Source: Candidatus Rhodoferax bjergmarkensis | Lineage (GTDB): Bacteria > Pseudomonadota > Gammaproteobacteria > Burkholderiales > Burkholderiaceae_C | DNA: 64,000 nucleotides | Assembly (NCBI GenBank): GCA_016708345.1 | Contig: JADJFX010000007.1 | Coordinates: forward strand, 96,339-160,338 | Direction: 5' to 3' | Part shown: positions 19,013-46,209 of the stretch, in pieces | How the letters are laid out: each line of letters opens with the position of its first letter | Position numbering within the stretch: position 1 is the first letter of the stretch | Program-made: the position numbers and the translations under genes | Notes under the pieces: model-generated | What the model saw: only the letters and a program-made list of their open reading frames with translations | Database searches by the model: none | What the model was told of the DNA's origin: nothing

Positions 19013-20850
19013 GGAATACGAGACACCACATGAGGCCAAGTATCGCACCTTAGAAGCGCCTGCGATCCGCGTGAAGCAGTCCATTTAGCGCCCCACCTGG
19101 CAGATTCACCACCAGGGCTTGATGTTCAAGAGCGTGATGTGCTGGGCGCGGCATGTACCGAGCGCAGAGACATCCCGCAGCGATTCAAAATCGCCACTTT
19201 GACCTCTCACCAGTTGATACGCTGATCGACCTCAAAGTCGGGTACCGGTTGAGCTGCCCCATCCCAGTCGGTTGCCCAATCTGGCTCGGTTTGCGCCCCG
19301 TCATCCATCTGCGCATCACCGCAGTCATCCCACAGCGGTGGTCCGCGCGCTGGGGCTATGTGCGGGGGCTCCGAGTCCACCCCGATGTGATCCAGAATCC
19401 GCCTGATCTGCCTGCCCTCGGTGACAAAGGCGATCAGGCGCATCTGCCCGCCACATAGCGGGCACAGCAACGGGAACACCTCGTAGATGCGGGCGATCAG
19501 CACCGCCCACAGGTAGTGGGCCGGGCGCTTGGTCGGTACGGGTTCGGGCGTGGGTGAAATTGCATTGCCCAGCGGCGCGGGGCGGTGTGCGTCATCGCCC
19601 GTGGCATCTGGCTGGGCATCCGCCATGGCCGTAACCGCTGAGCGCAGCGGCGAGTTCGGCGCCAGCACACCAAAGTAGCGATGCCGGTGGGTGCGCGGTG
19701 GTGGCACCAGGGCGGCAATGCGGTCGATCAGCTCCAGCGCTGTGAGGTGCAGTTCGTCCACCTTGGCGCCACGCTTGTCACTGGTGGGCTCGCTGCGCTG
19801 TTTGGCGCAGCGGTACACCAGGGCTGCGCCCTCTTTGCGAAGGCGTTCCATGGCAAAGGGTGGGCGGGCGCAATACCTCAGCAAGCGCTCCAGGGCTGCG
19901 CGGTCGTCTGCTTCAATGCAGACACCGGCGTCCACCGAGAAGCCGCTGTGCTGGTAGGCCAGCATCTCTTTGGCATCAGCCTTCTCGATCAGGCCCCGGC
20001 CGACGAAGGCGCGCAGGATGCGTCGGCGCAAATCGGTCTGTACCTGGGCCACAGCGGTCTCGTCGATAGCACTGGCCGGGTGAAAAACGATGCCCGGTGG
20101 TGAGGATTGGACGTCGGTTTGGCCCACCACCGCCACCGGTATTTCCTCAAACACGCCATCGACCACACAGACGTGGAAGTGCACATGAGCGTTCAGGCTG
20201 GAGCCGAACCGGTGGATAAACGCCACGGCGCCGATGTGCTTGGCCGCCTTGTCCACATTTGCCGCACCGGGGCTGTGGGTCTGCAGGCTTTGCGCAATGA
20301 CCCGCAGGAAGATGCGCAGCACCATGTTGAGCACTGCCCCGTCACGCTGCATGAAATAGCGCAGTCGCTTCGGCACCGACAGCACCCACTGGCGCACCGG
20401 CAGGCGGGGGAAGACGTGGTCGCAGAGGTGCGCCGCCGTCTCCACCATGCGCCGGGTGTTGCACGAGGGGCACACGCCCCGGCCTTTGCAGGAATAGGCC
20501 ACGAAGTAGTCGTGCCCGCAGTCATCACACCACGCCCGGGCAAAGCCATGGGCGAAGATGCCGCATTCCAGATATTTGCGAAAGGCTTGGCGGACATAGG
20601 GCCTGGGGCTGTGGTGGTCGCCCTGGCCATCGAACTGACCGGCACTGGCCAACTCAAACCAGGTCTCAAAATGCTCGGCTATGGTTTGGTACAGCAGGGT
20701 CCGCTCGGGGTGGTGCCGGTTGTAGAGCTTTGGCTTTGTACCCGCTTGCCCGCCCGCGTGTGAATGCGCTTGCGTTGGGCGTGCAGTGGCGGGCATGGGG
20801 CAGTGCCAGCGTGGGCTGGGTGCCTGATGATACTGGGTTTATATCCAGCT
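19013..20850 (-). mobile_element. ISCR-type (IS91 family) element, copy 1 (type C)
   Basis: Intact 529-aa ORF 19207-20796 with Zn motifs CDDC/CKGRGVCPSC, HUH motif HVHFH and single-Tyr RLLRYCARPP; degenerate ori end near 19011. Confidence 0.92.
20833..20848. promoter_or_regulatory. LexA (SOS) box upstream of transposase copy 1
   Basis: taCTGGGTTTATATCCAGct fits CTG-N10-CAG. Confidence 0.7.
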
Positions 20851-20853
20851 TCG

Positions 20854-21182
20854 TCACAGGCAGAGCCAACCACTGGGCGCGCAAATAACGTCATCATTGT
20901 GGACTTTCCCGACCCCACCAATTTTTCCATCGGCAAGCTCTACAACAAACGCCTCGTCATTGTCAAAGCGCCAGTGAAAGCGGGAAGGCTGGGCGGTGAA
21001 GAACGAAACCGCCTTGTAGGGTGTCACCGTGCCCACGGTGCGCAGTACTCGCGCGGTTTTCACTTCGATCGCCCACAATGACATCGGCCTCAAGGGGTAG
21101 GGTCCATCCAACCCTGCGGGCTGTCGAGCGATGCCTGGGTGATGGTGTCCGGGTTGGGGGGAATCTGGGGAAGACGGGACAT
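20854..21182 (-). pseudogene. Small cupin-like protein, frameshifted, ending at the copy 1 boundary
   Basis: AAGGAG RBS before ATG at 21182; FTAQPSRFHWRFDNDEAF...DDVICAPSGW resembles cupin_3 motifs. Confidence 0.35.
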
Positions 21183-21309
21183 GGGGGAACTCCTTATGGA
21201 TGAAAAGAGAGGTACGGTTTGCTAGTAAATATGACGAATGTCATATTCGTGCAAATGCGGGGTAGCATTGCTGACGCCCGGGGGTCGTCATAGTTGGAAT
21301 GCGAAACAC

Positions 21310-21923
21310 ATGTCCCTGAACACCCGCGAAAAAATGATTTCTGGCGCCGCCGACCTGATCAGTCGCCGGGGGATCAATGGCACCAGTCTGCGCAACGTGG
21401 TAGACCACACGGGCACCCCGCGCGGCTCGCTTGCGCATCACTTCCCGGTGGCAAGATGCAGATGCTGGAAGAGGCCATCGCCTTTGCGTCCGACGCGGTG
21501 GCCGTTCCGCTGCACAGCGCCGTGGCGGACAAGGGCGTGGTGGCGGGCTTGCGCAGCTTCATTGGTTGGTGGCGTGCGCTTCTGCTTGCGTCGGACTTTG
21601 AAGCCGGTTGCGCCGTGATGGCCGTGGCCGTGGAGCCCCTGACCAGTACGGAGGGTGCCGCGCCCGAATCACCGGGCCAGCCCGAAAAATTGAGGGCTTT
21701 GGCACACGCCGCCTTTGGTCGTTGGGAAACCATCCTGACTGATGCCTTGTGCCAAGAGGGTGTGGACACCGCCCAAGCCAAGCGCTTGGCGGTATTGTGC
21801 GTGGCCGCGATTGAAGGCACGGTCGCCCTCTGCCGCGCCGCACGCAGCCCGCAAGCCTTGGACGATGTACTGCAGGAATTGGAAGCCCTGCTCGTGGTGC
21901 GCATCGCAAGCGCCCAGGCATAA
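21310..21923 (+). CDS. TetR-family regulator (one frameshift near 21445)
   Basis: TREKMISGAADLISRRGINGTSLRNVVDHTGTPRGSLAHHFP HTH; GCAVMAVAVE. Confidence 0.85.
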
Positions 21924-21947
21924 GAGCATGTTCTGAGGCGTTACAGC

Positions 21948-22898
21948 CTACGCAGCCACCGGCTGGCGTGCCTGCGCCGCCGGTGCTACCCGCATTAGCC
22001 CTTCCTGCGCAACGGAGGCCACCAGCCTACCCTGCTGAAAAAATTCACCTTTGCACAGGGCCCGTCCTCCACCGATATTGCGGCACTCGACCACGTACAG
22101 CAACCAGTCATCCATGCGAAACGGGCGGTGGAACCACAGCGTGTGGTCCAGGCTGGCCAGGCGTACTTCGCCGCGCGCCAGACTCAGCGGGTAGGGGGCA
22201 ATGGCGGTCACCAGCAAACCATGGTCGGACGCATATGCCAGCAAGGCCTGGTGCAAGGCCATATCTCCAGGCAGGTTTTGGCAGGCCTTGAGCCAGATGC
22301 GGGTCGGCCCTTCTGCACGAACCGGGTTGAGCATGTCCAGCGGCGTTTCACGCCGGTACTCAATGCCTAAAGGGGCCAATCGCAAGGCGCGCTGGTGCAC
22401 GGGCCATTGTTCGGCGGTCTGGGCCCGGTACGCGGTCTCACTTTGCAGTCCGCTGGGGCCAACCACCGCTGGCTGCGGCGGGTGGGCGTCCATGCCGGGC
22501 TCCGGCACCTGGGCCGATACGGTGGCTTCAAAAATGACGCCGCCGCTTTGCGATGCCGTCACCCGGCGGGCGCTGTAGTTTTTCCCGTCGCGCAAGCGCT
22601 CTACGGCATAGTCGATGGGCGCTTGCACCCCGAGTGATAGGAAATATGCATGCAGGGAATGCAACTCCCCCTGCGCGGGCAAGGTGGCTCTGGCGGCCAT
22701 CACCGCCTGCGCCAACACCAGCCCGCCATAAACCGAGGGTGTTCCGATGTCATGGCAGGGCCCGGTAAAACGACCGTCGCCAACGGGCTTCACCGCAACG
22801 ATCGTTGGTAAATCTCGCCCGGCCAGGCCTTCGTCGGCAACGGCAGCAAGGGGCGCGCGCAATACGCTGGAAATGGAAGTATCAGTTGGCATGTGCAA
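21948..22898 (-). CDS. tesB: Acyl-CoA thioesterase II
   Basis: VYGGLVLAQA, LHSLHAYF, LAYASDHGLL, ASLDHTLWFH. Confidence 0.88.
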   Translation of the reverse strand: MHMPTDTSISSVLRAPLAAVADEGLAGRDLPTIVAVKPVGDGRFTGPCHDIGTPSVYGGLVLAQAVMAARATLPAQGELHSLHAYFLSLGVQAPIDYAVERLRDGKNYSARRVTASQSGGVIFEATVSAQVPEPGMDAHPPQPAVVGPSGLQSETAYRAQTAEQWPVHQRALRLAPLGIEYRRETPLDMLNPVRAEGPTRIWLKACQNLPGDMALHQALLAYASDHGLLVTAIAPYPLSLARGEVRLASLDHTLWFHRPFRMDDWLLYVVECRNIGGGRALCKGEFFQQGRLVASVAQEGLMRVAPAAQARQPVAA

Positions 22899-23001
22899 TT
22901 CGGGATTTGGAGAAAACCCAAATTATGTCAACTGACATAACACACCACTGTCGCGCAGGTTCCGCACGCTTCAGCCGTGGCCAATTGATGCCGCGAAACT
23001 G

Positions 23002-23469
23002 CTATGCAGACGGCGCGCTGGACTCGGGTGGGCTGCTTGCAAGGCCGGGGCCGGGCTCGACCTGCATGTCAAAGGGTGAAAGGGTTTCCTTGCATTCGGA
23101 GCACGTCAGCACGGCGGTGGTGATATGGCCGCAGTTGCGGTGGCGGTGCAGGGCCGGGGGGCCTTCGGGGCCGACCATCCAGCGGTCGCCCCACTGCTTG
23201 AGCAAAAGGATGACGGGATAAAGGTCGCGCCCTTTTTCGGTGAGGCGGTATTCGAAGCGGGGTGGATTGTTCTGGTACTCCCGCCGCTCCAAAACGCCTT
23301 CGGCCACCAGCCGCTCCAGCCGGTCGGCCAGGCGGTGGCGTGACATACCCAGGCTGCGCTGCAGCTCGTCAAAGCGCCGAATGCCCAAAAAAGGCGTCGC
23401 GCACGATCAGGCCAGTCCAACGGTCGCCCACTACCGAGAGCGCACGGGCAATCGAGCACGGCGTTTCAT
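23002..23469 (-). CDS. HxlR-family winged-helix regulator (frameshift near 5' end)
   Basis: RRFDELQRSLGMSRHRLADRLERLVAEGVLER..YQNNPPRFEYRLTEKGRDL. Confidence 0.85.
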
Positions 23470-23578
23470 GAATTTCATCCCATCGCATGTCGCCAGTGTA
23501 ACAACTAAGTTCTGTTTTGGAACTATGATGCGATCAAGTTCCGTTTTGGAACTTACAACTTTTGACAAGGAATTCACC

Positions 23579-24367
23579 ATGACATCCACAGCCTCCCCCA
23601 TTTCGCGCGAAGTTCGCGGCCATGTCTTTCTGATTGGCCTGAACCGCGTGGACAAGAAAAACGCCTTCAACCTGGCCATGCTGCGCGAGCTGTCCGCCGC
23701 CATTGGCGAGTACGAAGCCAACCCCGAGCTGCGCGCTGCCGTCCTCTTCACCCATGGTGAAGACTTCACCGCAGGCCTGGACTTGATGGATGTGGCACCC
23801 GCCATGGCCGGTGACGCAGGCATCGTTGAAGAAGGTGCATTCGATCCCGTCGGCGTGCACGGCAAGACCCGCACCAAGCCGCTGGTGTGCGCCGTGCAGG
23901 GCCTGTGCCTGACCCTGGGCATTGAATTGATGCTGGCCTCCGACATCGTGGTGGCAGGTGACGACACCCGCATGGCCCAGATCGAAATCAAGCGCGGCAT
24001 CTTCCCCTTTGGTGGCGCCAACCAGCGTTGGGTGGCAGCTTCGGGCTGGGGCAACGCCATGCGCTACCTGTTGACGGGCGACGAACTTGACGCGGCCACC
24101 GCCTACCGTATCGGTATGGTGCAGGAAGTGGTCAGCCCCGACCAAGTCCTGTCCCGCGCGCTGGAGCTGGCCAATACGATTGCCGCCCAGGCCCCACTGG
24201 GTGTGGCCGCCACGCTGCGCTCGGCACGCATAGGTGTGGAGGAAGGCCAGCAGGCTGCATTCCAGCATTTGGTGCCGGAAATTCACAAGCTAATGGTGAC
24301 GGAAGACGCGCGTGAAGGTGTGATGTCCTTCATGCAGCGCCGCGCCGCGCAGTTCAAGGGCCGGTAA
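23579..24367 (+). CDS. Enoyl-CoA hydratase/isomerase (crotonase family)
   Basis: FTAGLDL, GIELMLASDIVVA, EIKRGIFPFGG. Confidence 0.9.
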   Translation: MTSTASPISREVRGHVFLIGLNRVDKKNAFNLAMLRELSAAIGEYEANPELRAAVLFTHGEDFTAGLDLMDVAPAMAGDAGIVEEGAFDPVGVHGKTRTKPLVCAVQGLCLTLGIELMLASDIVVAGDDTRMAQIEIKRGIFPFGGANQRWVAASGWGNAMRYLLTGDELDAATAYRIGMVQEVVSPDQVLSRALELANTIAAQAPLGVAATLRSARIGVEEGQQAAFQHLVPEIHKLMVTEDAREGVMSFMQRRAAQFKGR

Positions 24368-24378
24368 GGCAAGCTGCC

Positions 24379-24807
24379 ATGAGCCCATCTGTATTACTCA
24401 CCATCCATCTGTTCGCGGTTGCGTTCTGGCTCGGCGTCGTGGGCGTGGAATACCTGCTGGAACGCGGCCGCGCCCATAGCCACCAACATGGCTTCAACGT
24501 GGCACGCCTGCACTTTCAGATCGACACATGTCTGGAAATGCCGACCTTTCTGGTGGTGCTGGCCACAGGGTTGGCCCTGCTGGAGCCGCAGCGCATGAGT
24601 GGGCTGTATGCGCTCAAGGTGGCGGCGGGCGCGTTGGCCGTGCTGGGCAACGTGCTGTGCGTTGTCCCCATCGTGTTGCGCAAACGCGCCGCCGAGCGCC
24701 AAGACCTGGGCGCCGTCATCCGTTACTCCCGCTGGGTGGATCGGATTTCCGCCACCGCCATTCCTGCCGGGCTGGCTGCGTTTGCACTCGGCTGGGCCTT
24801 GCCCTGA
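24379..24807 (+). CDS. Small integral membrane protein
   Basis: About four hydrophobic segments; in operon between the crotonase and the ACAD. Confidence 0.7.
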   Translation: MSPSVLLTIHLFAVAFWLGVVGVEYLLERGRAHSHQHGFNVARLHFQIDTCLEMPTFLVVLATGLALLEPQRMSGLYALKVAAGALAVLGNVLCVVPIVLRKRAAERQDLGAVIRYSRWVDRISATAIPAGLAAFALGWALP

Positions 24808-24888
24808 CTGGTTGCCACCGTACAACCACTCCCCGCGTGGCCCCAAAGCAGGGGCCACGCTTCCTATCCCTCTTCACCGACACCCCCC

Positions 24889-26688
24889 ATGAATCTGTAC
24901 CAAGCCCCCCTGCGCGACATGCGCTTTGTATTGCACGAACTGCTCAACGTGGAGCAGCACTACACCTCCATTCCCGCCTTCGCCGAAGTCAACCGCGAAC
25001 TGGTGGACAGCATCCTGGACGTGGGCGCCCGTTTCGCCGAGCAGGAACTGTCGCCCTTGAACCGCAGCGGCGACGAAGAAGGGTGCCACTACCACGACGG
25101 AACCGTCACCACCCCGAAAGGTTTCAAGGAGGCCTACGCCCAGTACCTCGACCTGGGGCTGGGCTCGCTGTCCGCCCCGCAGGCGTATGGAGGCCAGGGC
25201 CTACCGCCCTCCCTGGACATTGCCGTGGGCGAAATGAATGGCACCGCCAACTGGTCCTGGGGCATGTACCCCGGCCTGTCGCGGGGCGCCATTGAAACCA
25301 TCAAGGCACATGGCACCGATGCGCAAAAGAACACCTACCTGTCCAAAATGACCAACGGCATCTGGACTGGCACCATGTGTTTGACCGAGTCGCATGCCGG
25401 CTCGGACCTGGGGTTGATCCGCACCAAGGCCATTGAGCAGGACGACGGCTCCTACGCCCTGCACGGCACCAAGGTATTTATCTCGGCGGGGGAACACGAT
25501 ATGGCCGACAACATCGTGCACATCGTGCTGGCCCGTTTGCCCGACGCCCCCAAAGGCACCAAAGGTATTTCGCTCTTCATCGTCCCCAAATACCTGCCCG
25601 ATGCTGGTGGCGAGGTGGGGCCCCGCAACGGCGTGCACTGCGGTGGCATTGAGCACAAGATGGGCATCAAGGCGTCAGCCACCTGCACCATCAACTTCGA
25701 TGGCGCCACGGGTTTTCTCATCGGCGAGCCCAACAAAGGGCTGCAGTGCATGTTCACTTTCATGAACGCGGCGCGGGTGGGCACCGCCGTGCAGGGCGTC
25801 TGCGCAGCCGAAGGGGCCTTCCAGGGTGCCCTGCGCTATGCGAAAGACCGCGTGGCCATGCGTTCACTCAACGGCCCTAGCCACCCGGAGCTGGAGGCCG
25901 ATCCCATCATCGTCCACCCCGCCGTGCGGACCATGCTGCTGACACAAAAAACCTTTGCCGAAGGTGGCCGCGCACTGGTGTACTGGCTGGCGACGCAAAT
26001 CGACCTGGCCGCGCACGCCTCCACCCCCGAAGCGCGGCAGCAGGCGGACGACCTGATGAGCATTCTGACCCCCATCGCCAAGGCATTCCTCACCGAAATG
26101 GGCAGTGAAGCCGCCAAACATGGTGTGCAGGTGTACGGTGGGCATGGGTTCATCCGCGAATGGGGCATGGAGCAAATCGTGCGCGACACCCGCATCGCCT
26201 GCCTGTACGAAGGCACCACCGAAATCCAGGCCTTGGATTTACTTGGCCGCAAAGTACTGCAAACACAGGGCGAATTGCTCAAAAAATTCACCCGCATCAT
26301 TCACAAGTTCTGCGAGGCCCACGCAGCACAAGCGGGCATGGACGAATTCGTCGCCCCACTCCAGTCATTGAACAAAACCTGGAGCGACCTGACCATGGAC
26401 ATTGGCATGAAAGCACTGATGAACCGCGATGAGGTCGGTGGCAGCGCCGTGGACTACCTGTATTTTTCGGGCTATGTCACCCTGGCCTATATATGGGCCT
26501 GGATGGCCGAGACGGCCTCGCGTCGTCTGTCCGAAAACCCCGAGCAAGCCGACTTCTACCACGCCAAGGTGCAAACCGCGCAGTTCTACTACCGCAAATT
26601 GCTGCCCAGGGCGCAGGCGCACCTTGCGTGCATTCAGGGTGGTTTGGTGGTCGTACAGCAAATGCCTGTCGCAGCATTTGCGTTTTGA
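24889..26688 (+). CDS. Acyl-CoA dehydrogenase (about 600-aa class with C-terminal extension)
   Basis: WTGTMCLTE, GTKVFISAG, GIEHKMGI, YEGTTEIQ. Confidence 0.93.
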   Translation: MNLYQAPLRDMRFVLHELLNVEQHYTSIPAFAEVNRELVDSILDVGARFAEQELSPLNRSGDEEGCHYHDGTVTTPKGFKEAYAQYLDLGLGSLSAPQAYGGQGLPPSLDIAVGEMNGTANWSWGMYPGLSRGAIETIKAHGTDAQKNTYLSKMTNGIWTGTMCLTESHAGSDLGLIRTKAIEQDDGSYALHGTKVFISAGEHDMADNIVHIVLARLPDAPKGTKGISLFIVPKYLPDAGGEVGPRNGVHCGGIEHKMGIKASATCTINFDGATGFLIGEPNKGLQCMFTFMNAARVGTAVQGVCAAEGAFQGALRYAKDRVAMRSLNGPSHPELEADPIIVHPAVRTMLLTQKTFAEGGRALVYWLATQIDLAAHASTPEARQQADDLMSILTPIAKAFLTEMGSEAAKHGVQVYGGHGFIREWGMEQIVRDTRIACLYEGTTEIQALDLLGRKVLQTQGELLKKFTRIIHKFCEAHAAQAGMDEFVAPLQSLNKTWSDLTMDIGMKALMNRDEVGGSAVDYLYFSGYVTLAYIWAWMAETASRRLSENPEQADFYHAKVQTAQFYYRKLLPRAQAHLACIQGGLVVVQQMPVAAFAF

Positions 26689-26694
26689 TCAGAC

Positions 26695-26728
26695 AAAAAA
26701 AATAAAGGGGGCGCTACACGCGCCCCTT
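26695..26728 (-). terminator. Intrinsic terminator between the convergent ACAD and rlmD 3' end
   Basis: GGGGCGC-TACAC-GCGCCCC stem with an A-run on the left (U-tract on the minus strand). Confidence 0.6.
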
Positions 26729-26756
26729 GCAACACCATCCGTCCTTCAAGCAGCCC

Positions 26757-26834
26757 TTACCCCTGCAACTCAAACACCGCCATGCTTTCCACATGCGCCG
26801 TGTGGGGGAACATGTTCACCACGCCCGCCATGAC
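26757..26834 (-). pseudogene. rlmD: Last ~25 codons of the 23S rRNA m5U methyltransferase RlmD
   Basis: MAGVVNMFPHTAHVESMAVFELQG*; directly abuts oriIS of copy 2. Confidence 0.8.
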
Positions 26835-28755
26835 GGATAGGCCATTCAACCGCCCTAGCCGAAGTATCGCGCCCCGGTATAGCCTTCGAGCCCCGTGAAA
26901 ACCCTGAGTTTCTTGCCCGCGTTGCTGGTTCACCAGCAAAATGCACCGTCGCCAGAGCCTATAGCGCTGCTGCGGGTGCGTCGGGCGCAGGCCTACCCTG
27001 CAGCGATTCAAAATCGTCGCTTCGCCCATTCACCAACTGATGCGCTGGTCTACCTCGTAGTCGGGGCTGGTTGCTCTGCTAAATCCCAACCCGACTCGCT
27101 TTGCACCCCTTCACCTGTCTGCGCATCACCACCGTCCTCCCACAGCGGTGGCCCGCGTGCCGGGGAGATGTGCGGGGGATCAGTCTCCACCCCGATGTGG
27201 TTCAGAATCTTCTTGATCTGCGTGCCCTCGGTAATGAACGCAATCAGACGCATCTGGCCACCGCACTTTGGGCACAGCAGCGGGAAAACCTCGTAAATGC
27301 GGGCGATCAAAACGGCCCACAGGTAGTGCGCTGGGCGCTTGGGCGGCACCGGCTCTGCAGGCCCGCTCTGGCCTGGGAGCACATTGCCCAGCGGTGCCAC
27401 ACCAGGCGCACCCTCCCCCGTGGTGCTCGGCTGCGCCGTGGCCGGGTGGGCCGGTGCTGCAAGCGCTGTGACCGCAGCCCTGAGCGGCGAATTCGGGGCC
27501 AGCACACCAAAGTAGCGGTGCCGATGCGTGCGTGGTGGCGGCACCAGGGCTGCTATGCGGTCGATCAGCTCCAGCGGTGTGAGGGTGATTTCGTCTACCT
27601 TGGCACCGCGCTTGTCACTGGTGGGCTCGCTGCGCTGCTTGGCACAGCGGTACACCAGGGCTGCGCCCTCTTTGCGAAGGCGGTCCATGGCAAAGGGCGG
27701 GCGGGCGCAGTAGCGCAGTAAGCGCTCCAGCGCAGCGCGGTCGTGTGCTTGGATGCACACACCGGCATCCACCGAGAAGCCGCTGTGCGTGTAGGCCAGC
27801 ATGTCTTTGGCGTCACAACTCTCCAGCAGGCCCCGAGCGACGAAGGCGCGCAGGATGCGTTTTTGCAGGGTGGTCTGCACTTGGGCAACGGCATCCGCAT
27901 CGATGGCGCTGGCCGGGTGGAAGATGACGCTCGGCGCAGGGGCTGGAGGAACATCCGCGTCGCCCTCGCCCGCCACCGCCTCAATCACCCCATCGACCAC
28001 GCAGACGTGGAAATGCACATGCTGGTTCAGGCTGGAGCCGAATCGGTGGATAAAGGCGATGGCCCCGATGTGCAGGGCGGCCTTGTCTACCTGTGCCGCA
28101 CCGGGGCTGTGGGTCTGCAGGCTTTGCGCGATGACCCGCAGAAAAATACGCAGCACCATGCCCAGCACTGCCCCCATCGCGCTGCATGAAGTAGCGCAGC
28201 CGCTTTGGCACCGACAGCACCCACTGGCGCACCGGCAGGCGGGGGAAGACGTGGTCCGTGAGGTGTGCCGCCGTCTCCACCATACGCCGGGTGTTGCACG
28301 AGGGGCACACGCCACGGCCTTTGCAGGAAAAGGCCACAAAGTAGTCGTGGCCGCAGTCGTCACACCAGGCTCTGGCAAAGCCGTGGGCAAAGATGCCGCA
28401 TTCCAGATATTTGCGAAAGGCTTGGCGGACATAGGGCTTTGGGGTGTGGTGGTCGCCCTGCCCGTCGAACTGGCCTGCGCTGGCCAACTCAAACCAGGTC
28501 TCAAAGTGCTCGGCTATGGTTTGGTAGAGCAGGGTTCGCTCAGGGTGGTGCGGGTTGTAGAGTTTGGATTTGCTGCCCGATTGGCCACCCGCTGGCCCAC
28601 CCGCGTGCGGGTGTGAGCAGGCTTGCGCGGTACGGGCGGCGACAGGCATGGTGCAGCGCCAGAGCGAGCGTATTGGCTCGGGCTGGGTGCACCATGTTAC
28701 TGTTTTTATATCCAGTTATATCCGCTTGGTATGGCTTGACAGGCCATCTGCAGAC
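26835..28755 (-). mobile_element. ISCR-type element, copy 2 (type A)
   Basis: oriIS GGATAGGCCATTCAACCGC; transposase in ORFs 27981-28649 and 27050-28504 (frameshifts); hairpin ATGGC-TTGACAG-GCCAT at 28731-28747. Confidence 0.92.
28700..28715. promoter_or_regulatory. LexA box, copy 2
   Basis: taCTGTTTTTATATCCAGtt. Confidence 0.8.
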
Positions 28756-37908: not shown

Positions 37909-37927
37909 ACCGCTTGCGCTTCACACG

Positions 37928-38381: not shown

Positions 38382-40307
38382 GGATAGGAAATTCAACCGC
38401 ATGAGGCCAAGTATGTCACGGGTTTGGGGCCACGAAACACGTCTGGCCCTGGCAATTTGAGCGCTCGCAGCCGCTCAACGACGAGGCCTTGGGTTGCAAG
38501 ATGGATTTGGGGCTGGCGCGCACGCAGCTGCTCCCCGCAGCAGTCGAAATCACTGCTGGGGTCCATCACCAATTGATGCGCTGATCCACCTCGTAGTCTG
38601 GGGCGGGTTGTGCCGCAATGTCCCAATCTGGCTCGACATCAGCACCCTCGCCCACCTGCGCGTCACAACCCTCCCACAGCGGTGGCCCACGTGCCGGGGC
38701 GATGTGTGGGGGATCGGACTCCACCCCAATGTGATTGAGAATTTGCAGGATATCGGCGCGGTGGGTGATGAACGCAATCAGGCGCATCTGCCCACCGCAC
38801 ATTGGGCACAGCAGCGGGAATACCTCGTAGACGCGTGCAATCAGCACCGCCCACAGGTAGTGGGCTGGACGCTTGGGCGGCACCGGCTTGGAAGGCTCGG
38901 TCTGGGTTGGGAGTGCGTTGCCTTGCTGCACAACCCCAAATGCGCCCACGCACGCACCCGTGCTGGCTGGCTCGGCCTGCGCAGTGACCGGTTGCGCAGG
39001 TAGCACCTGTGCCAGCGCTGTGACCGCACAGCGCAGTGGCGAATTCGGGGCCAGCACACCAAAGTAGCGGTGCCGGTGCGTGCGCGGCGGCGGCACCAAG
39101 GCCGCAATGCGGTCGATCAGCTCCAGCGGTGTGAGGTGCAGTTCGTCTGCCTTGGCACCGCGCTTGTCACTGGTGGGCTCGCTGCGCTGTTTGGCGCAGC
39201 GGTACACCAGGGCTGCGCCTTCTTTATGCAGCCGATCCATGGCAAAGGGTGGGCGCGCGCAGTAGCGCAGCAGCCGCTCCAGTGCCGCGCGGTCGTGGGC
39301 TTCGATGCACACACCCGCATCCACCGAGAAGCCGCTGTGCTGGTAGGCCAGCATGTCTTTGGCGTCACAGCTCTCCAGCAGCCCCCGGCCGACGAAGGCG
39401 CGCAGGATGCGTTTTTGCAGGGTGGTCTGCACTTGGGCAACGGCATCCGCATCGATGGCGCTGGCCGGGTGGAAGATGACGCTCGGCGCAGGGGCTGGAG
39501 GAACATCCGCGTCGCCCTCGCCCGCCACCGCCTCAATCACCCCATCGACCACGCAGACGTGGAAATGCACATGCTGGTTCAGGCTGGAGCCGAATCGGTG
39601 GATAAAGGCGATGGCCCCGATGTGCAGGGCGGCCTTGTCTACCTGTGCCGCACCGGGGCTGTGGGTCTGCAGGCTTTGCGCGATGACCCGCAGAAAAATA
39701 CGCAGCACCATGCCCAGCACTGGCCCGCCCTGCTGCATGAAGTAGCGCAGCCGCTTTGGCACCGATAGCACCCACTGGCGCACCGGCAGGCGGGGGAAGA
39801 CGTGGTCCGTGAGGTGTGCCGCCGTCTCCACCATACGCCGGGTGTTGCACGAGGGGCACACGCCACGGCCTTTGCAGGAAAAGGCCACAAAGTAGTCGTG
39901 GCCGCAGTCGTCACACACCAGGCTCTGGCAAAGCCGTGGGCAAAGATGCCGCATTCCAGATATTTGCGAAAGGCTTGGCGGACATAGGGCTTTGGGGTGT
40001 GGTGGTCGCCCTGCCCGTCGAACTGGCCTGCGCTGGCCAACTCAAACCAGGTCTCGAAGTGCTCGGCTATGGTTTGGTAGAGCAGGGTGCGCTCAGGGTG
40101 GCGCGGGTTGTAGAGTTTGGATTTGCTGCCCGATTGGCCACCGCTGGCCCACCCGCGTGCGGGTGTGAGCAGGCTTGCGCGGTACGGGCGGCGACAGGCA
40201 TGGTGCAGCGCCAGAGCGAGCGTATTGGCTCGGGCTGGGTGCACCATGTTACTGTTTTTATATCCAGTTATATCCGCTTGGTATGGCTTGACAGGCCATC
40301 TGCAGAC
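38382..40307 (-). mobile_element. ISCR-type element, copy 4 (B/A hybrid)
   Basis: Ori half matches copy 3, upstream half matches copy 5; frameshift near 39910. Confidence 0.92.
40252..40267. promoter_or_regulatory. LexA box, copy 4
   Basis: taCTGTTTTTATATCCAGtt. Confidence 0.8.
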
Positions 40308-40312
40308 ACTCA

Positions 40313-40386
40313 TTCACTTCTGAATTGATAGCTACCTGCGCACGCCAGGCGTGCGCAAAGGCACTATTTCTATGCATAAACCCAGC
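40313..40386. repeat. REP-like repeat, copy e
   Basis: Same hairpin as copy c. Confidence 0.85.
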
Positions 40387-40470
40387 GTCTTGCGCATGGA
40401 TCGAGCGCCATGGCTCAAGCGTCGCATCGACTCGCTGACGCCCTGCTGCCTGTCCCGACAAGAGTTTCTT

Positions 40471-40897
40471 TTAGCCCCGCATCCACGTGTGAAAGCGCCC
40501 CAGCCAGACCAGCACTTGGTGGGGCGCATGGGCTCGCTTCCATTCCCCGGCCGCATATTTGTTGGCTTCAGCCAATGTTGGGTAGGTGTGGATGGTACCC
40601 AGAATCTTGTTCAGCCCCAGCCCGTGTTTCATGGCCAACACAAACTCCGCCAGCAAATCGCCCGCGTGTTCACCGACGATGGTCACGCCCAATATTCGGT
40701 CTTTGCCGGGCACCGTCAGCACCTTGACAAAACCGTGCGCGGTGCCGTCGGCAATGGCGCGGTCCAGGTCATCAATACCGTATTGTGTGACTTCATAGGC
40801 AACGCCCTTCTCTTTGGCGTCTTGCTCATTGAGGCCCACCCGCGCCACTTCGGGCTCGATAAAGGTGGCCCACGGCACCACCGAATAGTCCACCTTG
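40471..40897 (-). pseudogene. Last ~140 codons of another allele of the oxidoreductase
   Basis: KVDYSVVPWATFIEPEVARVG...HQVLVWLGRFHTWMRG with a TAA stop (the full gene has HKVLAW and TGA). Confidence 0.85.
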
Positions 40898-40936
40898 GCT
40901 GCCACCGCGCGTTGATCGGCGAGCGGCGTGGCTCGC

Positions 40937-43749
40937 TCAAGCCTGCACAGCAAACTTGCCCGGCAGGGTGATGACGGTCTCAAAGGCTCGCAGGTCGGCG
41001 TCAACGTTGTTGTCCAGCAAATGGATTTCAATGCTGCCGCCTTCGTTTTCCAGAAAGCCCTTGACCGCGTCCATGCCCACGCCGCGTCCGGACACTTCGG
41101 TCACTTTTTCGGCGGTCGAGAAGCCGGAGGCAAAAATCATCTTCGCCACCGTTTCAGGTGATGCCGCATTGCCTTCGGGTAGCATGTTTTCTCGATCGCC
41201 ATTTTGCGAATGCGGCCAATGTTCAGGCCCCTGCCATCGTCGCGCAAGCTCAATTTGAGCTTGTCGTCTTCGACGCTCATGGCCAGCTGAATGTTGCCCA
41301 CCTGCGTCTTGCCCGCCGCTTGGCGCACCTCGGCGGTTTCCAGGCCATGGTCAATCGAGTTGCGCAGCAGATGCACGAACAGGTTTTTCAGCAGACCGCC
41401 GATCTGGTTGCGCACCACAATGCCTTGGTCGTCAATGCGGATCACCGGCGGCTCCTTGCCCAGCTCCTTGGCCAGCGAGGGGATGGACTCGATCACTCCA
41501 GAAAGAATCTTGTCGATTTTCTCGGTGCCAATCAGGCTCAGCGTCTTGCCAATTTGGGACAGCGCTGCGCGCATGGCGGCGAGGTCGGTGGCATCCACCG
41601 AATCGACCAGTTGTATCGACTGCGCCACCTGTTCTTTGTCAACCAGCAAGAACTTTTCAACGCCGCCCCGGCGCCCTGGTCCTTTGCGACCCAGCGTGTG
41701 GCTGTTGACCTTGGCGTATTCGTCCACAAGGTTTTTGACCTGCGCCAGTTGCTGCCCCAGCATCTCGGAGTCCCAGACCATCTCGGGGTTCTGACGCAAC
41801 TCATGGTAGGTCTGTTCCGTCTCGTGCACCACGTTGGTCATGTGCAGCAAACCGTAGGTTCTGGCATTGCCCTTGATGGTGTGCATGTTGCGGAACAGTA
41901 CGCCGATGACGCCGTCATCCTTTTGGGCGGTTTTCTGGGTAATGACCTCGTTCTCAGCGACAAACTTGTACGAACTGTCGACGAACTCCTGGAATTTTTC
42001 CTGACTGACGGCCAGGATTTCACCAATGATTTCGAGCTCGCGTTTTTGCGCATTGGCTTCTTTGCCCAAGCGTTTGAGCTCGGTGACGTCGCGGGCGCAT
42101 AGCATGATTTTCTCAACCACATCGTTGGCATCGCAAATGGGCGACCAACTCAGCTCGATCGATTTGACCCGGCCATCTGGCATCGTTTTATCAAATTCGG
42201 TGACCATCAAGTGTGAGTTGAATTCGAAGTTCATCCGGTCCTCTCCAACGCAGGCATCCACCGCCGCTTCTACTTGCGACAGAGGGTCGGAGCCCAGGTT
42301 GGTGTTGGAGAACACCAGTTTCATCAGATTCTTGCCGGCAATCTCGTGCGTTTCAAACATGGTTTCCAGGTAGGCCGAGTACTCGGGGTGGATCACGTTG
42401 TTTGCCAATACGGTCAACACGCCCTGTGGCATGTTCTGCATCATGGCCTGGATGTCGTGGGTCTTTTGGGCCAACTGGGCGGTGCGTTCGGTGACCAGGT
42501 GCTCCAGATTGTCGTTGAGCACCTTCAGATCCTTCACCAGAATCTTGTTTTCCACGAAGGTGTTGGCGAAGGTATTGGAGGCCACATAAAGCATGGTGCC
42601 AACAAATATGGCGGTGCCAAAAAACACCATGGCAAAGCTGCTGATGACGCCCAATGAAAGCAGGATATCGTTGAATCCGGTCACCAAGATGGACGAGATA
42701 CCAACCAGAAGAATGGCGGAACCAGGTTTCCGATGCTGGATCCCTCGAATCAGCTGATAACAACCACCGAATCCGCCTAACAGGACGCCGATGAATAGAA
42801 AGGTTTTCACTGGCTGGAAAAGTTCCAGATTGGGGTGAATGGTCATCGTGGCAATGTACAAACCCGAAGCGCCCAGCAGCACACCGCCAACCCAGTTGAT
42901 CTTGGGCGTGAACTTGTGAAAAAACTGCGTGAAGATGTAGAACAAAAAGATGGCGCAAATACCGGGGTAATGCAGGTAAAGCATGGTCTCCGGCTCAAAC
43001 AGTTTGACGAAATAATCGGCTGGCGCGCCAAAAAATGGAAAGATCAAAATACTGGAAGAGCCGCAAACCAGATAAAGCGCGTACCGGGTCTTGGCGAAAA
43101 CCAGTAGGAAAAAGAATCCAAAAAACAAAATCACGTACGAGATGATGATGCGCGCCTCACCGCCCAGGAGCTGGTAGATGACCACACCACGGTCATGCTG
43201 GTCGTATTTGCGCAATTCAAAGGGCAATTGGTATACCCCCACCATCAGGGGCGTATCAATGCGCATGGCCAGCACGTGGTGCGGCTGACTGATCTTGAAA
43301 CGCACAGGAATGGCCTGAGTTGAAAAATACGGCTCAACATTGATGTTGTTGGGGCGACGGTAAATTTCTTGACCATCGACGTAGATGTTGACTCGCGCCA
43401 TGTAGGCATTGACCAAAAGGACGACTTCTTGCCCCACCAGCGAGGGATGGAATTCGAAGTGCCCGCGGTACCAACCTATGGGAAATACCTTTTTGTCGTT
43501 ATAGACACCTTTCCACGGCCCCGGTGCCTTGGCCAGTCGCCAGCTGGAAGTATCAAGGTTGACGTCCTTGTTTTGGGGGGAATCGTCGCGGGTAAAAAGC
43601 CACTTGCCGCTCAATTTCAGTGGCTTGTCCAGACTTTCAATCTGGATTTTGCAGGAGGTGCAGCCGACTTGATGCGCTGGTGAGTTGGCCGCTGCTTTTG
43701 CGAACAAGGAGCAAAAAATCAGCAGCAGCAATGCGAGTCTCGAAAGCAT
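40937..43749 (-). CDS. Membrane sensor kinase: 7TM-DISM-type sensor + PAS-like + Hpt + CheA-type HATPase (frameshift near 41160)
   Basis: Sugar-binding-like LSGKWLF..GWYRGHF, about seven TMs, Hpt LFRNMHTIKGNAR, HLLRNSIDHG, DDGRG, IFASGFSTAEKVTEVSGRGVGMDAV. Confidence 0.8.
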
Positions 43750-43892
43750 GGGGAAGGTTTCCTGAAGTGGATAGACAAAAAGCTTGAAGTGGTCACTTGA
43801 TTTGTTACAACTTTAACCAGTCATTTACAACTTATCAAGCACTACGCCTCTCAACACACGTGTTTTCCCTTTGTGTGTGGTGCCCAACGCAA

Positions 43893-43917
43893 AGTGGCTG
43901 GGGGCAACCCAGCCACT
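43893..43917 (-). terminator. Intrinsic terminator after the chalcone-isomerase-like gene
   Basis: Perfect 10-bp stem AGTGGCTGGG/CCCAGCCACT followed by TTGCGTT on the minus strand. Confidence 0.6.
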
Positions 43918-44023
43918 GGCGGTAAGCTAAACATGCACTATTTTGGTGAGCCAAACTTGTTGGCCAAATACAGCGCCGCAAAAGCGGTTTGAAGCAAGCG
44001 CTCCGTTTAGAAAAATCTCCGGC

Positions 44024-44282
44024 TTATTGGATGCCCAGCAATTGATCCTTGAGTTTCCAATTGGTCGGCTGTTGCCCCAGCCAGACGCTGGCGATGGCAT
44101 AGAAAAATTCGGGCTCCTTGAATGGCTCGCCCTGCTGCTTGCCCTTGCCGTTAACCACCAGGCCGGTGCCCGGAATCCAGTCCAGCGTCACGACGTCACC
44201 CTCGACAAAAGTCTTGGCTGTGGAAAAAATCTCACCCATGCGCATCAGGCCCGGAATGAGTTTGGACAACTCACTGCGGGAC
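44024..44282 (-). pseudogene. Chalcone-isomerase-like protein, C-terminal fragment
   Basis: LDWIPGTGLVVNGKGKQQGEPFKEPEFFYAIASVWLGQQP; cut by oriIS of copy 5. Confidence 0.7.
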
Positions 44283-46209
44283 GGATAGGCCATTCAACCG
44301 CCCTAGCCGAAGTATCGCGCCCCGGTATAGCCTTCGAGCCCCGTGAAAACCCTGAGTTTCTTGCCCGCGTTGCTGGTTCACCAGCAAAATGCACCGTCGC
44401 CAGAGCCTATAGCGCTGCTGCGGGTGCGTCGGGCGCAGGCCTACCCTGCAGCGATTCAAAATCGTCGCTTCGCCCATTCACCAACTGATGCGCTGGTCTA
44501 CCTCGTAGTCGGGGGCTGGTTGCTCTGCTAAATCCCAACCCGACTCGCTTTGCACCCCTTCACCTGTCTGCGCATCACCACCGTCCTCCCACAGCGGTGG
44601 CCCGCGTGCCGGGGAGATGTGCGGGGGATCAGACTCCACCCCGATGTGGTTCAGAATCTTCTTGATCTGCGTGCCCTCGGTAATGAACGCAATCAGACGC
44701 ATCTGGCCACCGCACTTTGGGCACAGCAGCGGGAAAACCTCGTAAATGCGGGCGATCAAAACGGCCCACAGGTAGTGCGCTGGGCGCTTGGGCGGCACCG
44801 GCTCTGCAGGCCCGCTCTGGCCTGGGAGCACATTGCCCAGCGGTGCCACACCAGGCGCACCCTCCCCCGTGGTGCTCGGCTGCGCCGTGGCCGGGTGGGC
44901 CGGTGCTGCAAGCGCTGTGACCGCAGCCCTGAGCGGCGAATTCGGGGCCAGCACACCAAAGTAGCGGTGCCGATGCGTGCGTGGTGGCGGCACCAGGGCT
45001 GCTATGCGGTCGATCAGCTCCAGCGGTGTGAGGGTGATTTCGTCTGCCTTGGCACCGCGCTTGTCACTGGTGGGCTCGCTGCGCTGCTTGGCACAGCGGT
45101 ACACTAGGGCAGCGCCCTCTTTGCGAAGGCGGTCCATGGCAAAGGGCGGGCGGGCGCAGTAGCGCAGTAAGCGCTCCAGCGCAGCGCGGTCGTGTGCTTG
45201 GATGCACACACCGGCATCCACCGAGAAGCCGCTGTGCGTGTAGGCCAGCATGTCTTTGGCGTCACAACTCTCCAGCAGGCCCCGAGCGACGAAGGCGCGC
45301 AGGATGCGTTTTTGCAGGGTGGTCTGCACTTGGGCAACGGCATCCGCATCGATGGCGCTGGCCGGGTGGAAGATGACGCTCGGCGCAGGGGCTGGAGGAA
45401 CATCCGCGTCGCCCTCGCCCGCCACCGCCTCAATCACCCCATCGACCACGCAGACGTGGAAATGCACATGCTGGTTCAGGCTGGAGCCGAATCGGTGGAT
45501 AAAGGCGATGGCCCCGATGTGCAGGGCGGCCTTGTCTACCTGTGCCGCACCGGGGCTGTGGGTCTGCAGGCTTTGCGCGATGACCCGCAGAAAAATACGC
45601 AGCACCATGCCCAGCACTGGCCCGCCCTGCTGCATGAAGTAGCGCAGCCGCTTTGGCACCGATAGCACCCACTGGCGCACCGGCAGGCGGGGAAGACGTG
45701 GTCCGTGAGGGTGTGCCGCCGTCTCCACCATACGCCGGGTGTTGCACGAGGGGCACACGCCACGGCCTTTGCAGGAAAAGGCCACAAAGTAGTCGTGGCC
45801 GCAGTCGTCACACCAGGCTCTGGCAAAGCCGTGGGCAAAGATGCCGCATTCCAGATATTTGCGAAAGGCTTGGCGGACATAGGGCTTTGGGGTGTGGTGG
45901 TCGCCCTGCCCGTCGAACTGGCCTGCGCTGGCCAACTCAAACCAGGTCTCAAAGTGCTCGGCTATGGTTTGGGTAGAGCAGGGTTCGCTCAGGGTGGCGC
46001 GGGGGACCTTGTAGAGTTTGGATTTGCTGCCCGATTGGCCACCCGCTGGCCCACCCGCGTGCGGGTGTGAGCAGGCTTGCGCGGTACGGGCGGCGACAGG
46101 CATGGTGCAGCGCCAGAGCGAGCGTATTGGCTCGGGCTGGGTGCACCATGTTACTGTTTTTATATCCAGTTATATCCGCTTGGTATGGCTTGACAGGCCA
46201 TCTGCAGAC
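44283..46209 (-). mobile_element. ISCR-type element, copy 5 (type A)
   Basis: oriIS identical to copy 2; 541-aa ORF 44478-46103 with local compensated frameshifts. Confidence 0.92.
46154..46169. promoter_or_regulatory. LexA box, copy 5
   Basis: taCTGTTTTTATATCCAGtt. Confidence 0.8.

Follow-up and report, generated by a model that had tools for sequence, protein, structure and literature searches.

Single-tyrosine HUH elements of the IS91 family (ISCRs) are known to transpose by a rolling circle and to recombine with one another, and several described systems resemble the locus reported here. Among the closest are elements of the ISCR8 group (ISPps1; pADP-1, pCNB1 and herbicide plasmids of Delftia and Sphingobium). 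In Sphingobium herbicidovorans MH an IS91-type sdpA cluster is associated with an 11-kb circle, cIS91sdpA, that contains two IS91 copies together with cargo (PMC5737581). A ‘sandwich’ mode of capture has been proposed for ISCR28 and armA/sul4 (Yuan et al. 2024, as outlined in PMC12772301). The promoters of ISCR1, ISCR2 and ISCR8 are under LexA control (PMC13393415).

The locus analysed here, part of a window of 64,000 nucleotides, comes from the chromosome of a wastewater betaproteobacterium, where it occupies a variable region flanked by lysA and metG. It is a genuine cluster of ISCR8-group elements, present in five chromosomal copies. An original prediction had placed five co-oriented ISCR-type transposase genes within 27 kb: this holds, with all five on the minus strand between 19011 and 46216.

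Transposases, sequence types and ends of the elements

Five repeats of ∼1.9 kb occupy the positions first given, with the limits of every copy now refined. The first, c1 (19011-20887), is a sequence type of its own with an intact transposase ORF of 529 aa (19207-20796); its left (ter) limit at 20887 is also the limit of copies with 94-98% identity in MAGs of Ca. Aalborgicola. Type A is represented by c2 (26833-28762), in which the N-terminal frame is broken by homopolymer indels, and by c5 (44281-46216), whose 541-aa ORF (44478-46103) is open and contains two locally frame-scrambled but compensated patches. Type B is represented by c3 (30731-32672), its C-terminal frame shifted by one C within a C-run, and c4 (38380-40314) is a mosaic with a one-G deletion near 40142. 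Most of these indels fall in homopolymer runs, and the frameshifts of the four copies are probably long-read errors.

All five copies contain the Pfam domain Y2_Tnp and four of the five Zn_Tnp_IS91. In the transposase alignment HVHFHV represents the HUH motif, and LLRYCARPP contains a single tyrosine, the second one four residues on being absent. Identity to ISPps1/ISCR8 is ∼81% at the nucleotide and 76-83% at the amino acid level, and the copies score below the NCBIfam cut-off for ISCR clade Ia.

Three sequence types had been proposed and three were found: c1 is 85-90% identical to the other copies, and c2 and c5 are ∼99-100% identical across ∼2.2 kb. To these a hybrid must be added: the 5′ half of c4 is A-type, its 3′ half (1.1 kb) is identical to that of c3, and the switch lies inside a 49-nt stretch shared by both (39390-39438). 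Hybrid copies had been predicted, and the mosaic nature of c4 implies exchange between copies.

The oriIS terminus lies ∼170 nt past the transposase stop codon. The terminal sequence of c2-c5 is …CCTATCCGT, past which the DNA is unrelated; this end matches ISPps1/ISCR8, and over their last 37 nt c3 and c4 do not differ from ISPps1 of pADP-1. The terminal 17-mer of c1 is divergent (…TGTCTCGTATTCCGT). Each transposase gene is preceded by a LexA-like box: that of c5 reads CTGG-N8-ACAG (46152-46169, minus strand) and the equivalents in the other four copies are at 20831-20848, 28698-28715, 32620-32637 and 40250-40267 (five matches against none expected). The elements may therefore be under SOS control. 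Boxes, oriIS and single-Tyr HUH transposase together place the copies among the ISCRs. As first stated there is no integron: no tyrosine recombinase, and hence no integron integrase, occurs across the whole contig.

Ter-side flanks and cargo blocks

The blocks between copies measure 1.7-5.9 kb and are mutually unrelated. Each is set off by a flank on the ter side of the preceding element, and the flanks of c2-c5 start with a dispersed REP-like hairpin, at whose edge the ter limits of these copies are drawn. On the minus strand next to c2 (28763-29070) the hairpin is followed by 152 nt from the 3′ end of an oxidoreductase gene, and next to c4 (40315-40897) by 427 nt from the 3′ end of such a gene. 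Only c5 retains the full-length context (46217-48803, minus strand). After its REP-like element come the FAD oxidoreductase (46373-47815) and the VTT/DedA domain (47550-48803), which are parts of one fused gene in relatives, and then metG. The upstream DNA common to the three is thus cut at 308 bp in c2, at 583 bp in c4 and not at all in c5; identity is 99-100% between the flanks of c2 and c5 and ∼90% between the oxidoreductase parts at c4 and c5. The flank of c3 (32673-35225, minus strand) consists of the REP-like element (32673-32749) and a second, 5′-truncated uvrA, the genome's own uvrA being on another contig. One ter flank at three lengths, together with the 5′-cut uvrA, is characteristic of one-ended rolling-circle transposition, and bears out the claim that ter-side DNA travelled with the elements. 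The flank of c1 is a 57-bp stretch without a REP and of unassigned origin (20888-20944, minus strand); it runs from the c1 limit to 20945. A solo REP-like element with a 5′-truncated oxidoreductase paralogue and no ISCR attached is found at 15659-17400 (minus strand); the paralogue is 82-91% identical to the oxidoreductase of the array.

Beyond the flanks lie four blocks of captured DNA. T1 (20945-26832) encodes a TetR regulator, acyl-CoA thioesterase II, HxlR, enoyl-CoA hydratase, a 142-aa ORF and acyl-CoA dehydrogenase. It occurs in metagenome contigs at 99.5% identity with ISCR junctions as well as in its native setting, which has cupin/LysR to the left and a trmA-like gene to the right and parts from the window at 20945. 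T2 (29071-30730, minus strand) holds an intact GT1 (MGT-family) glycosyltransferase (29316-30635) with a G+C of ∼51%. T3 (35235-38379) is a beta-lactamase module. The class A beta-lactamase itself, which is new, is encoded on the plus strand (37024-37908); it is accompanied by a 560-aa protein with no family assigned (35228-36910, minus strand) and by a neighbouring gene that is cut. In T4 (40898-44280, minus strand) the 3′ part of a chalcone-isomerase-like gene accompanies a cheA-like Hpt/HATPase gene (∼40935-43749) that has a single frameshift near 41150. Contrary to the first reading the cheA-like gene shows no visible cut and has its own stop near 40935.

Blocks had been said to end in a gene cut at the next oriIS, and a remnant does abut the ori of c2 (75 bp of the trmA-like ORF), c3 (75 bp of a chalcone-isomerase-like gene, 30656-30730), c4 (the gene beside bla) and c5 (the chalcone-isomerase-like part, 44032-44280). 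Parts of what was first taken as cargo, namely the 3′ fragments of the oxidoreductase and the 5′-truncated uvrA, are element-borne flanks. G+C is unequal among the blocks and T3 matches an ISCR-free chromosomal locus of another genus at 89% identity, which together point to a foreign origin of the cargo.

Origin of the array

We consider it likely that the array was built by one-ended rolling-circle transposition combined with recombination or gene conversion between copies, both of which are known for the family. Transposition would start at the fixed oriIS, cross the element and halt at variable points in the ter-side DNA, so that the ori end is constant and the opposite end ragged (152 nt, 427 nt or the full length of the oxidoreductase gene, or the 5′-cut uvrA). 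Homologous recombination or gene conversion among the ∼1.9-kb copies would generate mosaic copies and re-join any ter-side with any ori-side junction, chaining blocks of different genomes head to tail. The outcome would be an ISCR-cargo mosaic that unites the beta-lactamase module and the glycosyltransferase with a set of fatty-acyl-CoA genes and the gene of a chemotaxis-type kinase, and in which each interval between consecutive oriIS sites is a potential excisable unit. The elements may still be active.

The one-ended pattern recurs elsewhere: among related ISCRs, lpdA or 3′ lpdA fragments of variable length lie directly upstream in 11 of 76 loci, as also upstream of ISPps1 in pADP-1, and of the internal partial copies 21 keep the ori end, against 8 with the ter end. 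Recombination is supported by the c4 mosaic, by a single junction of the 75-bp chalcone-isomerase-like remnant with the glycosyltransferase that recurs behind two different ISCR types, and by the ends of T1, for which all four combinations of ISCR junction and native continuation are present in metagenome contigs. For no unit was a native locus found that is contiguous across both its sides: simple insertion alone is therefore insufficient, and the reading needs further steps, either recombination or deletion next to the unit. Targeting of the REP-like hairpin would be another source of the common flanks, and strand-biased insertion could likewise account for co-orientation.

In its strict form the original prediction invoked ter-side read-through circles that repeatedly integrate by homology into a resident ISCR, adding one ISCR-cargo unit per round. 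Its premises (ISCR type, ter-side transport and recombination between copies) are supported, and T3 fits it well: its near end coincides with the ragged end of the c3 unit, an ori terminus exactly adjoins its far end, and c4, upstream of T3, shares its 1.1-kb 3′ half with c3. Copies are directly oriented throughout, in this array as in other genomes, and the circular IS91-cargo form of Sphingobium was seen experimentally (PMC5737581). Nevertheless, we regard the strict form as rather doubtful. The reciprocal hybrid of a simple A × B crossover is missing, c3 being pure B, and the model can be kept only with a crossover within 3′ halves that were already identical. Nor does it predict 5′-truncated copies, which are frequent in related arrays. 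The far end of T1 carries an A-type ori rather than the divergent ori expected of a c1 circle, and contigs with just one of T1's ISCR junctions occur in both versions; this ori and the four end combinations fit two separate junction events better. A looser model of circles plus recombination is compatible with the array, though not demonstrated.

A chimeric assembly, in which strains or species with one or two ISCR copies each were chained through the repeat, is improbable. The bin is mixed (contamination 4.5%) and includes a contig, C39, that is a 90% homeologue of the region from metG (in part) through oxidoreductase, REP and c5 to the chalcone-isomerase-like gene, including the T4 ori junction; the same blocks have alternative contexts in metagenomes; and neither the c4 hybrid joint nor the joint of T4 with the oxidoreductase was found in JGI metagenome contigs. 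Against this, wastewater metagenome contigs from independent samples repeat c1-T1-c2, c3-T2-flank-c2 and c4 ori-T3-uvrA′ at 99.5-100% identity (T3 at 99.8-100% in several samples), so that consecutive copies are crossed, with the whole cargo and both adjoining ISCR ends, in c1-T1-c2 and c3-T2-c2. Identical repeats of >1 kb are resolved within a 214-kb contig, which with the homopolymer-type indels indicates a long-read assembly, and a finished chromosome and isolates assembled from long reads have equivalent arrays. Since most junctions are reproduced independently, a chimera is unlikely; the long-range order through identical ISCR bodies is given by one assembly.

Least probable of all are independent insertions into a tolerant hotspot, strand-biased or REP-targeted, with ori-side deletions and no recombination in the block order: c2-c5 adjoin one position of the hairpin, in oxidoreductase and uvrA contexts, c3 and c5 adjoin one position of orthologous chalcone-isomerase-like genes and the DNA downstream of the oxidoreductase differs among species of the genus, but c1 has no REP, the mosaic c4 is proof that copies exchanged sequence, and the c2 and c5 flanks remain 99-100% identical far past the REP, compared with 82-91% for unlinked paralogues, which argues for copying rather than separate targeting.

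Relation to described ISCR systems

The array is close to ISCR8. Shared features include the zinc domain and single-Tyr HUH transposase, the position of oriIS and, in c3 and c4, its last 37 nt, a CTG-N10-CAG LexA-type box ahead of the gene, a truncated pyridine-nucleotide-disulfide oxidoreductase gene at the ter side, and multiple copies per replicon that flank accessory genes. The differences are also clear: beyond the limited sequence identity, the promoter and ter region cannot be aligned with ISPps1; the remnant is a PRK06370-type oxidoreductase fused to VTT/DedA, not lpdA; and three diverged types and a mosaic lie adjacent to one another on a chromosome.

Complex class 1 integrons with ISCR1, and multi-copy ISCR1/ISCR2 resistance regions, likewise have a constant ter flank with variable truncation points, unrelated captured genes right past oriIS, and repeated copies in direct orientation that can be used in homologous recombination. 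Here, in contrast, the contig has no integron or integrase, the copies fall below the clade Ia cut-off and are heterogeneous rather than identical, and the cargo is mostly unrelated to resistance. The sdpA cluster also alternates several ISCR8-related copies with cargo, and its authors propose one-ended transposition; it is, however, plasmid-borne and mainly a tandem duplication of similar units, whereas the blocks here are unrelated (PMC5737581). In the ISCR28 case two sequential oriIS ends enclose a gene and are the proposed limits of the mobilised segment; the element belongs to another ISCR group and one cassette is involved, compared with four here (PMC12772301).

Co-oriented multi-copy arrays, as yet undescribed, are also found in other Burkholderiales, namely in a finished chromosome (Betaproteobacteria bacterium UKL13-2, CP012157) and several long-read MAGs or isolates, with Sulfuritalea, Ca. 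Ideonella and Ottowia among the assemblies. These belong to the same ISCR clade (63-86% amino acid identity), with all copies co-oriented, 1-6 kb of cargo between them and 5′-truncated copies that retain the ori end. Their copies are mostly 96-100% identical and some arrays are plain tandem amplifications; the combination of three types and a hybrid is present here and in none of them. The suggestion that a multi-type array of this length is novel was overstated: the literature already describes oriIS ‘sandwich’ capture, IS91-cargo circles and ISCR-cargo-ISCR arrays, and public genomes contain comparable arrays. Rather than a new system, the array represents an already known type of mobile-DNA mosaic in an unusually readable form.

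Five co-oriented ISCR-type elements

Repeat finding and a listing of open reading frames reveal a unit of ∼1.9 kb that is present five times on the minus strand of the window, between 19.0 and 46.2 kb (copies c1 to c5, at 19011–20887, 26833–28762, 30731–32672, 38380–40314 and 44281–46216). The Pfam Y2_Tnp core (PF04986) is found in every copy (E 1e-38) and the IS91 zinc-binding domain (PF14319) in four, the match in c2 being lost through an N-terminal frameshift. Alignment of the proteins shows that the HUH motif HVHFHV and the segment LLRYCARPPF are invariant across the copies, with a proline four positions past the tyrosine. Elements of the ISCR group have a single catalytic tyrosine, IS91 proper has two; the window copies have one, in agreement with the original prediction of ISCR-type, single-Tyr HUH transposases. 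The nearest NCBIfam models are those for ISCR and IS91, both of which score under their curated cut-offs: 266 at best against 925 for ISCR clade Ia (NF052416) and 104 at best against 125 for the IS91 equivalog (NF033538), so that membership is assigned in neither. Identity to ISPps1 (ISCR8) is 76–83% at the amino acid level and ∼81% at the nucleotide level. In ISfinder practice one and the same IS is defined by at least 95% amino acid or at least 90% nucleotide identity; with this threshold applied, ISCR8 itself is ruled out and the copies are, as classed by sequence identity, new elements of the ISCR8 group, distinct from ISCR8. The assignment to the IS91 family and ISCR is firm.

Copies c2 to c5 have the non-inverted, distinct ends and the precise ori boundary that define IS91 and ISCR elements. 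Their oriIS terminus, …ATACTT…TTGAAT(TT/GG)CCTATCCGT, lies on the minus strand at 26833, 30731, 38380 and 44281, respectively, with unrelated DNA beyond each. As in ISCR8, the ori end is ∼170 nt past the stop codon, and over the final 37 nt c3 and c4 do not differ from the oriIS end that ISPps1 has in plasmid pADP-1; c1 ends at 19011 (minus strand) in a divergent 17-mer. In DNA folding predictions the ori ends did not outperform shuffled sequence. On the side of the putative terIS, upstream of the gene, the copies have a common left limit (AATGA/AACGA…) and a LexA-like box: CTGG-N8-(A/C)CAG stands ahead of each transposase gene (five matches against zero expected). These boxes resemble the LexA box that controls the transposase promoters of ISCR1, ISCR2 and ISCR8 (PMC13393415), which makes LexA a putative regulator here.

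Aligned as DNA together with the adjoining flanks, the copies bear out the description, made from the sequence at the outset, of five co-oriented elements of three types, and one of them proves to be a hybrid. Copies c2 and c5 (type A) are ∼99–100% identical across 2.2 kb, c3 is type B, and c1 is a separate type, 85–90% identical to the others. The hybrid is c4, which follows type A as far as a common stretch of 49 nt (39390–39438) and is identical to c3 beyond it.

Indels between near-identical copies fall nearly all within homopolymer runs, mostly of C or G. This suggests residual long-read errors across the region and renders the apparent frameshifts of c2 to c5 doubtful; genuine pseudogenization of the four copies was judged unproven on the same ground. 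The transposase reading frame of c1 is intact. Frameshifts also divide genes that are single open reading frames in relatives, at 47550–47815 (a VTT-oxidoreductase fusion) and ∼41150 (a cheA-like gene), and a further site lies at 16212.

Ter-side flanks and a REP-like repeat

A REP-like hairpin repeat of ∼57 nt (AAATAGTGCCTTTGCGCACG…CGTGCGCAAGCAGCTATCAATTCAGGAGTAA), with a perfect 9-bp hairpin, is dispersed through the genome in at least 16 copies. In the window it occurs at 46217–46290, 40315–40388, 32673–32749, 28763–28836, 15659–15733 and 11776–11845; elsewhere it is found on contigs C3, C8, C19 and C26. It folds well (z = −2.6), and is the sole good folder when set against the ori ends. 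The ter ends of c2 to c5, that is, the ends upstream of the transposase gene, adjoin the repeat at an identical position in two gene contexts, and c1 is without it. A role as a component of the ISCR was rejected, given its absence from c1 and ISPps1 and its dispersal in the genome. Either these ISCRs use the repeat as a hotspot of insertion or termination, or the junction that they have in common is ancestral.

On the ter side of c2, c4 and c5 the repeat lies directly upstream and is followed by the 3′ end of an FAD oxidoreductase gene. Beside c5 the gene is whole and, as in relatives from the same genus, continues into a VTT/DedA domain; metG comes next, and the site appears to be the native one. 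The flank of c2 is 99–100% identical to that of c5 and ends after 308 bp, while c4 carries a 90%-identical version that ends after 583 bp. Next to c3 is a further copy of the repeat and then a 5′-truncated uvrA gene; the proper uvrA of the genome is on another contig. One-ended rolling-circle transposition of the IS91 type is described as giving a fixed ori end (Mendiola 1994 and Garcillán-Barcia 2002, as summarized in PMC5737581) and, in the same account, as leaving a ragged upstream end (PMC5737581). The fixed ori ends and ragged upstream ends of the window elements match this footprint.

The pattern is not restricted to the window. The gene lpdA (dihydrolipoyl dehydrogenase), or 3′ fragments of it of variable length, lies directly upstream in 11 of the 76 related ISCR loci (compared loci L002, L004, L007, L010, L015, L023, L029, L031, L044, L058 and L072), an lpdA tail precedes ISPps1 in pADP-1 too (L121), and lpdA-flanked ISCR copies occur in many Burkholderiales. 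Among internal partial ISCR copies of the compared loci, the ori end is retained in 21 cases and the ter end in eight. Together the lpdA flanks and the ori-retaining partial copies indicate that fixed ori and ragged ter ends are general. In contrast to the lpdA-flanked ISCRs and ISPps1, the window elements bear a different member of the same enzyme superfamily at this position. A ‘dihydrolipoyl dehydrogenase’ beside an ISCR on a Klebsiella plasmid was rejected as a counterpart of the window oxidoreductase, to which it has no DNA similarity; it probably belongs to the kind of lpdA flank seen with ISPps1.

Further remnants were seen. At 15659–17400 the repeat and a 5′-truncated oxidoreductase paralogue resemble an ISCR ter flank but are without an ISCR, and a fragment of an MCP signaling domain (17141–18061) adjoins them. 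Other ISCR debris in the genome includes a solo oriIS terminus (contig C34, ∼126848) and partial copies at C3:358671–359800, at C3:366194–367271 and on C13 and C24; the larger ones, on C3, keep the ori end, and one has the REP-like repeat and an internal promoter deletion.

Cargo blocks and their linkage

Four blocks remain between the copies after removal of the carried ter-side flanks. T1 (20945–26832) contains genes for TetR, thioesterase II, HxlR, enoyl-CoA hydratase and acyl-CoA dehydrogenase; T2 (29071–30730) a low-G+C GT1 glycosyltransferase; T3 (35235–38379) a 560-aa protein, a class A beta-lactamase and a cut neighboring gene; and T4 (40898–44280) a cheA-like kinase gene and the 3′ part of a chalcone-isomerase-like gene. 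The blocks have no mutual similarity, repeats being limited to the ISCR bodies and ter flanks, which rules out tandem amplification of one ISCR-gene unit. An integron, or complex class 1 integron, is also ruled out, as originally stated: no tyrosine recombinase of the IntI type (PF00589) is matched anywhere on the contig. No Rfam family was detected within the window.

The beta-lactamase fits no named family. T3 shares 89% identity with a chromosomal locus from another genus of the family (genome G026, C1:3656414–3659523; L084/L089). That locus is free of ISCRs over ±8 kb and has an unbroken version of the gene that is cut at the ori of c4; it is a candidate source context of the captured module.

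The flanks of the window are ordinary chromosome (pilMNOP, mrcA and lysA to one side; metG, scpA, nadB and panBC to the other), and everything from lysA to metG has the look of a variable island. Its part between lysA and the array (8763–15253) contains an ankyrin-repeat protein of 1023 aa (G+C 65%) and genes of low G+C, among them those for a P-loop protein and a dynamin-like protein.

The array is real. Exact repeats of more than 1 kb are resolved within the 214-kb contig, which, together with the homopolymer indels, is typical of long-read assembly. Exact-protein look-ups gathered independent contigs, 99.5–100% identical, from many independent wastewater assemblies. These contigs span the ter end of c1 through T1 to the ori of c2; the ori of c3 through T2 and the 308-bp flank into 1.4 kb of c2; and the ori of c4 through T3 to the truncated uvrA. 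The joints so confirmed exclude those within the hybrid c4, between T4 and the oxidoreductase and between the REP-like repeat and uvrA, and the left junction of c1; for the first two there was no exact match among JGI metagenome contigs. The look-ups returned nothing for the beta-lactamase (294-aa start), the cheA-like reading frame, truncated uvrA, the oxidoreductase fragment or a 309-aa reading frame, likely due to start-codon differences or frameshifts. An 8119-bp contig of the same bin (C39) carries a 90%-identical homeologue of 43517–50317, comprising metG, the VTT-oxidoreductase gene, the REP-like repeat, a c5-type ISCR and the cut chalcone-isomerase-like gene, with an unrelated 2-kb IS with terminal inverted repeats inside the repeat; because it includes part of metG, it is probably from a second, related organism. 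Resolved repeats, spanning contigs and this homeologue all argue against an assembly chimera.

The same modules occur in other linkages. T1 is found in four ways: native on both sides, with the c1 junction only, with the type-A ori junction only, and with both; the two junctions are therefore separate events that were later recombined. The exact 439-aa MGT-family glycosyltransferase of T2 (29316–30635; L091–L100) is present in 36 blocks from the public collection, mostly wastewater. The contigs that carry it are in every case short and terminate in ISCR sequence, and it has at least three upstream and at least two downstream linkages. Its core follows a type-B ori and a gene remnant of 75 bp; at the same joint, a different ISCR type that matches a Ca. 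Ideonella copy at 100% identity; or a type-B ori that has inserted, 125 bp upstream, into an apparently native neighbor; or it is on a contig with no ori in the 102 bp of upstream sequence, an absence that applies to that distance. On its other side is the 308-bp oxidoreductase flank or a chromosomal metY-like gene, joined at the same nucleotide. From the variants of T1 and the glycosyltransferase core, ISCR bodies thus serve as exchangeable links between junctions. The presence of 99.5–100% identical modules in several wastewater studies, in alternative linkages, means that the system is polymorphic in the field. No native locus with both sides of a unit contiguous was found; plain insertion alone is therefore insufficient to produce the order, and recombination or adjacent deletion must have followed.

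Formation of the array and known ISCR systems

One-ended transposition combined with recombination between copies probably built the array, a mechanism that we read from the variable-length ter flanks and the ori-retaining truncated copies. The original prediction was stricter, holding that circles of an ISCR plus ter-side DNA integrate into a resident copy. T3 would be neatly explained in this way: the ragged end of the c3 unit forms its near side, the far side falls exactly on an ori terminus, and c4, the upstream copy beside it, has a 3′ half identical to c3. T1 is a misfit, its far end bearing a type-A rather than a c1-type ori, and the reciprocal hybrid is absent, so that under this model the crossover must lie inside pre-existing identity. 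As the sole route to the array, integration of circles is unlikely.

In a bolder scheme, which we regard as doubtful, co-oriented ISCR arrays form an integron-independent cassette platform. The DNA from each oriIS to the following one would already constitute a unit, to be excised by an SOS-induced single-Tyr transposase as a circle that runs from one oriIS to the other; recombination would let this circle into any other ISCR copy, and the REP-like hairpin would be a preferred landing or termination site. If true, chromosomal genes such as that for the class A beta-lactamase would become mobile cassettes among the Burkholderiales of wastewater.

The movement of many resistance genes is attributed to ISCR elements, whose mechanism is known largely from sequence footprints. 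The window brings together in one place fixed ori ends, a ter flank at three lengths, a mappable crossover between two types, and a captured beta-lactamase module that can be compared with its probable, ISCR-free chromosomal source. It is most useful as a well-documented natural system in which ISCR transposition, termination and SOS control could be tested, and the array records a chromosomal class A beta-lactamase module becoming ISCR-linked in wastewater bacteria.

Structures in which ISCRs alternate with cargo are already published, as are multiple ISCR8 copies on catabolic plasmids. A circular form of IS91 with cargo has been observed (PMC5737581) and capture between two oriIS ends is reported for ISCR28 (Yuan et al. 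2024, as cited in PMC12772301). In the finished chromosome of Betaproteobacteria bacterium UKL13-2, 14 kb contain three full copies of the same clade and two that are 5′-truncated, with cargo including adenosine deaminase, a Schlafen-type ATPase, Imm49, Imm5 and glyoxalase; co-oriented arrays of the clade are also present in Sulfuritalea, Ca. Ideonella and Ottowia, some of them plain tandem amplifications, from which (in Sulfuritalea and Ottowia) the unrelated cargo of the window differs. The original claim of novelty is overstated: ISCR-cargo arrays are known and those of the same clade exist in public genomes. Our literature search found no paper on a chromosomal array in which three types and a hybrid occur together; the three types and the hybrid are a difference of degree, not of kind.
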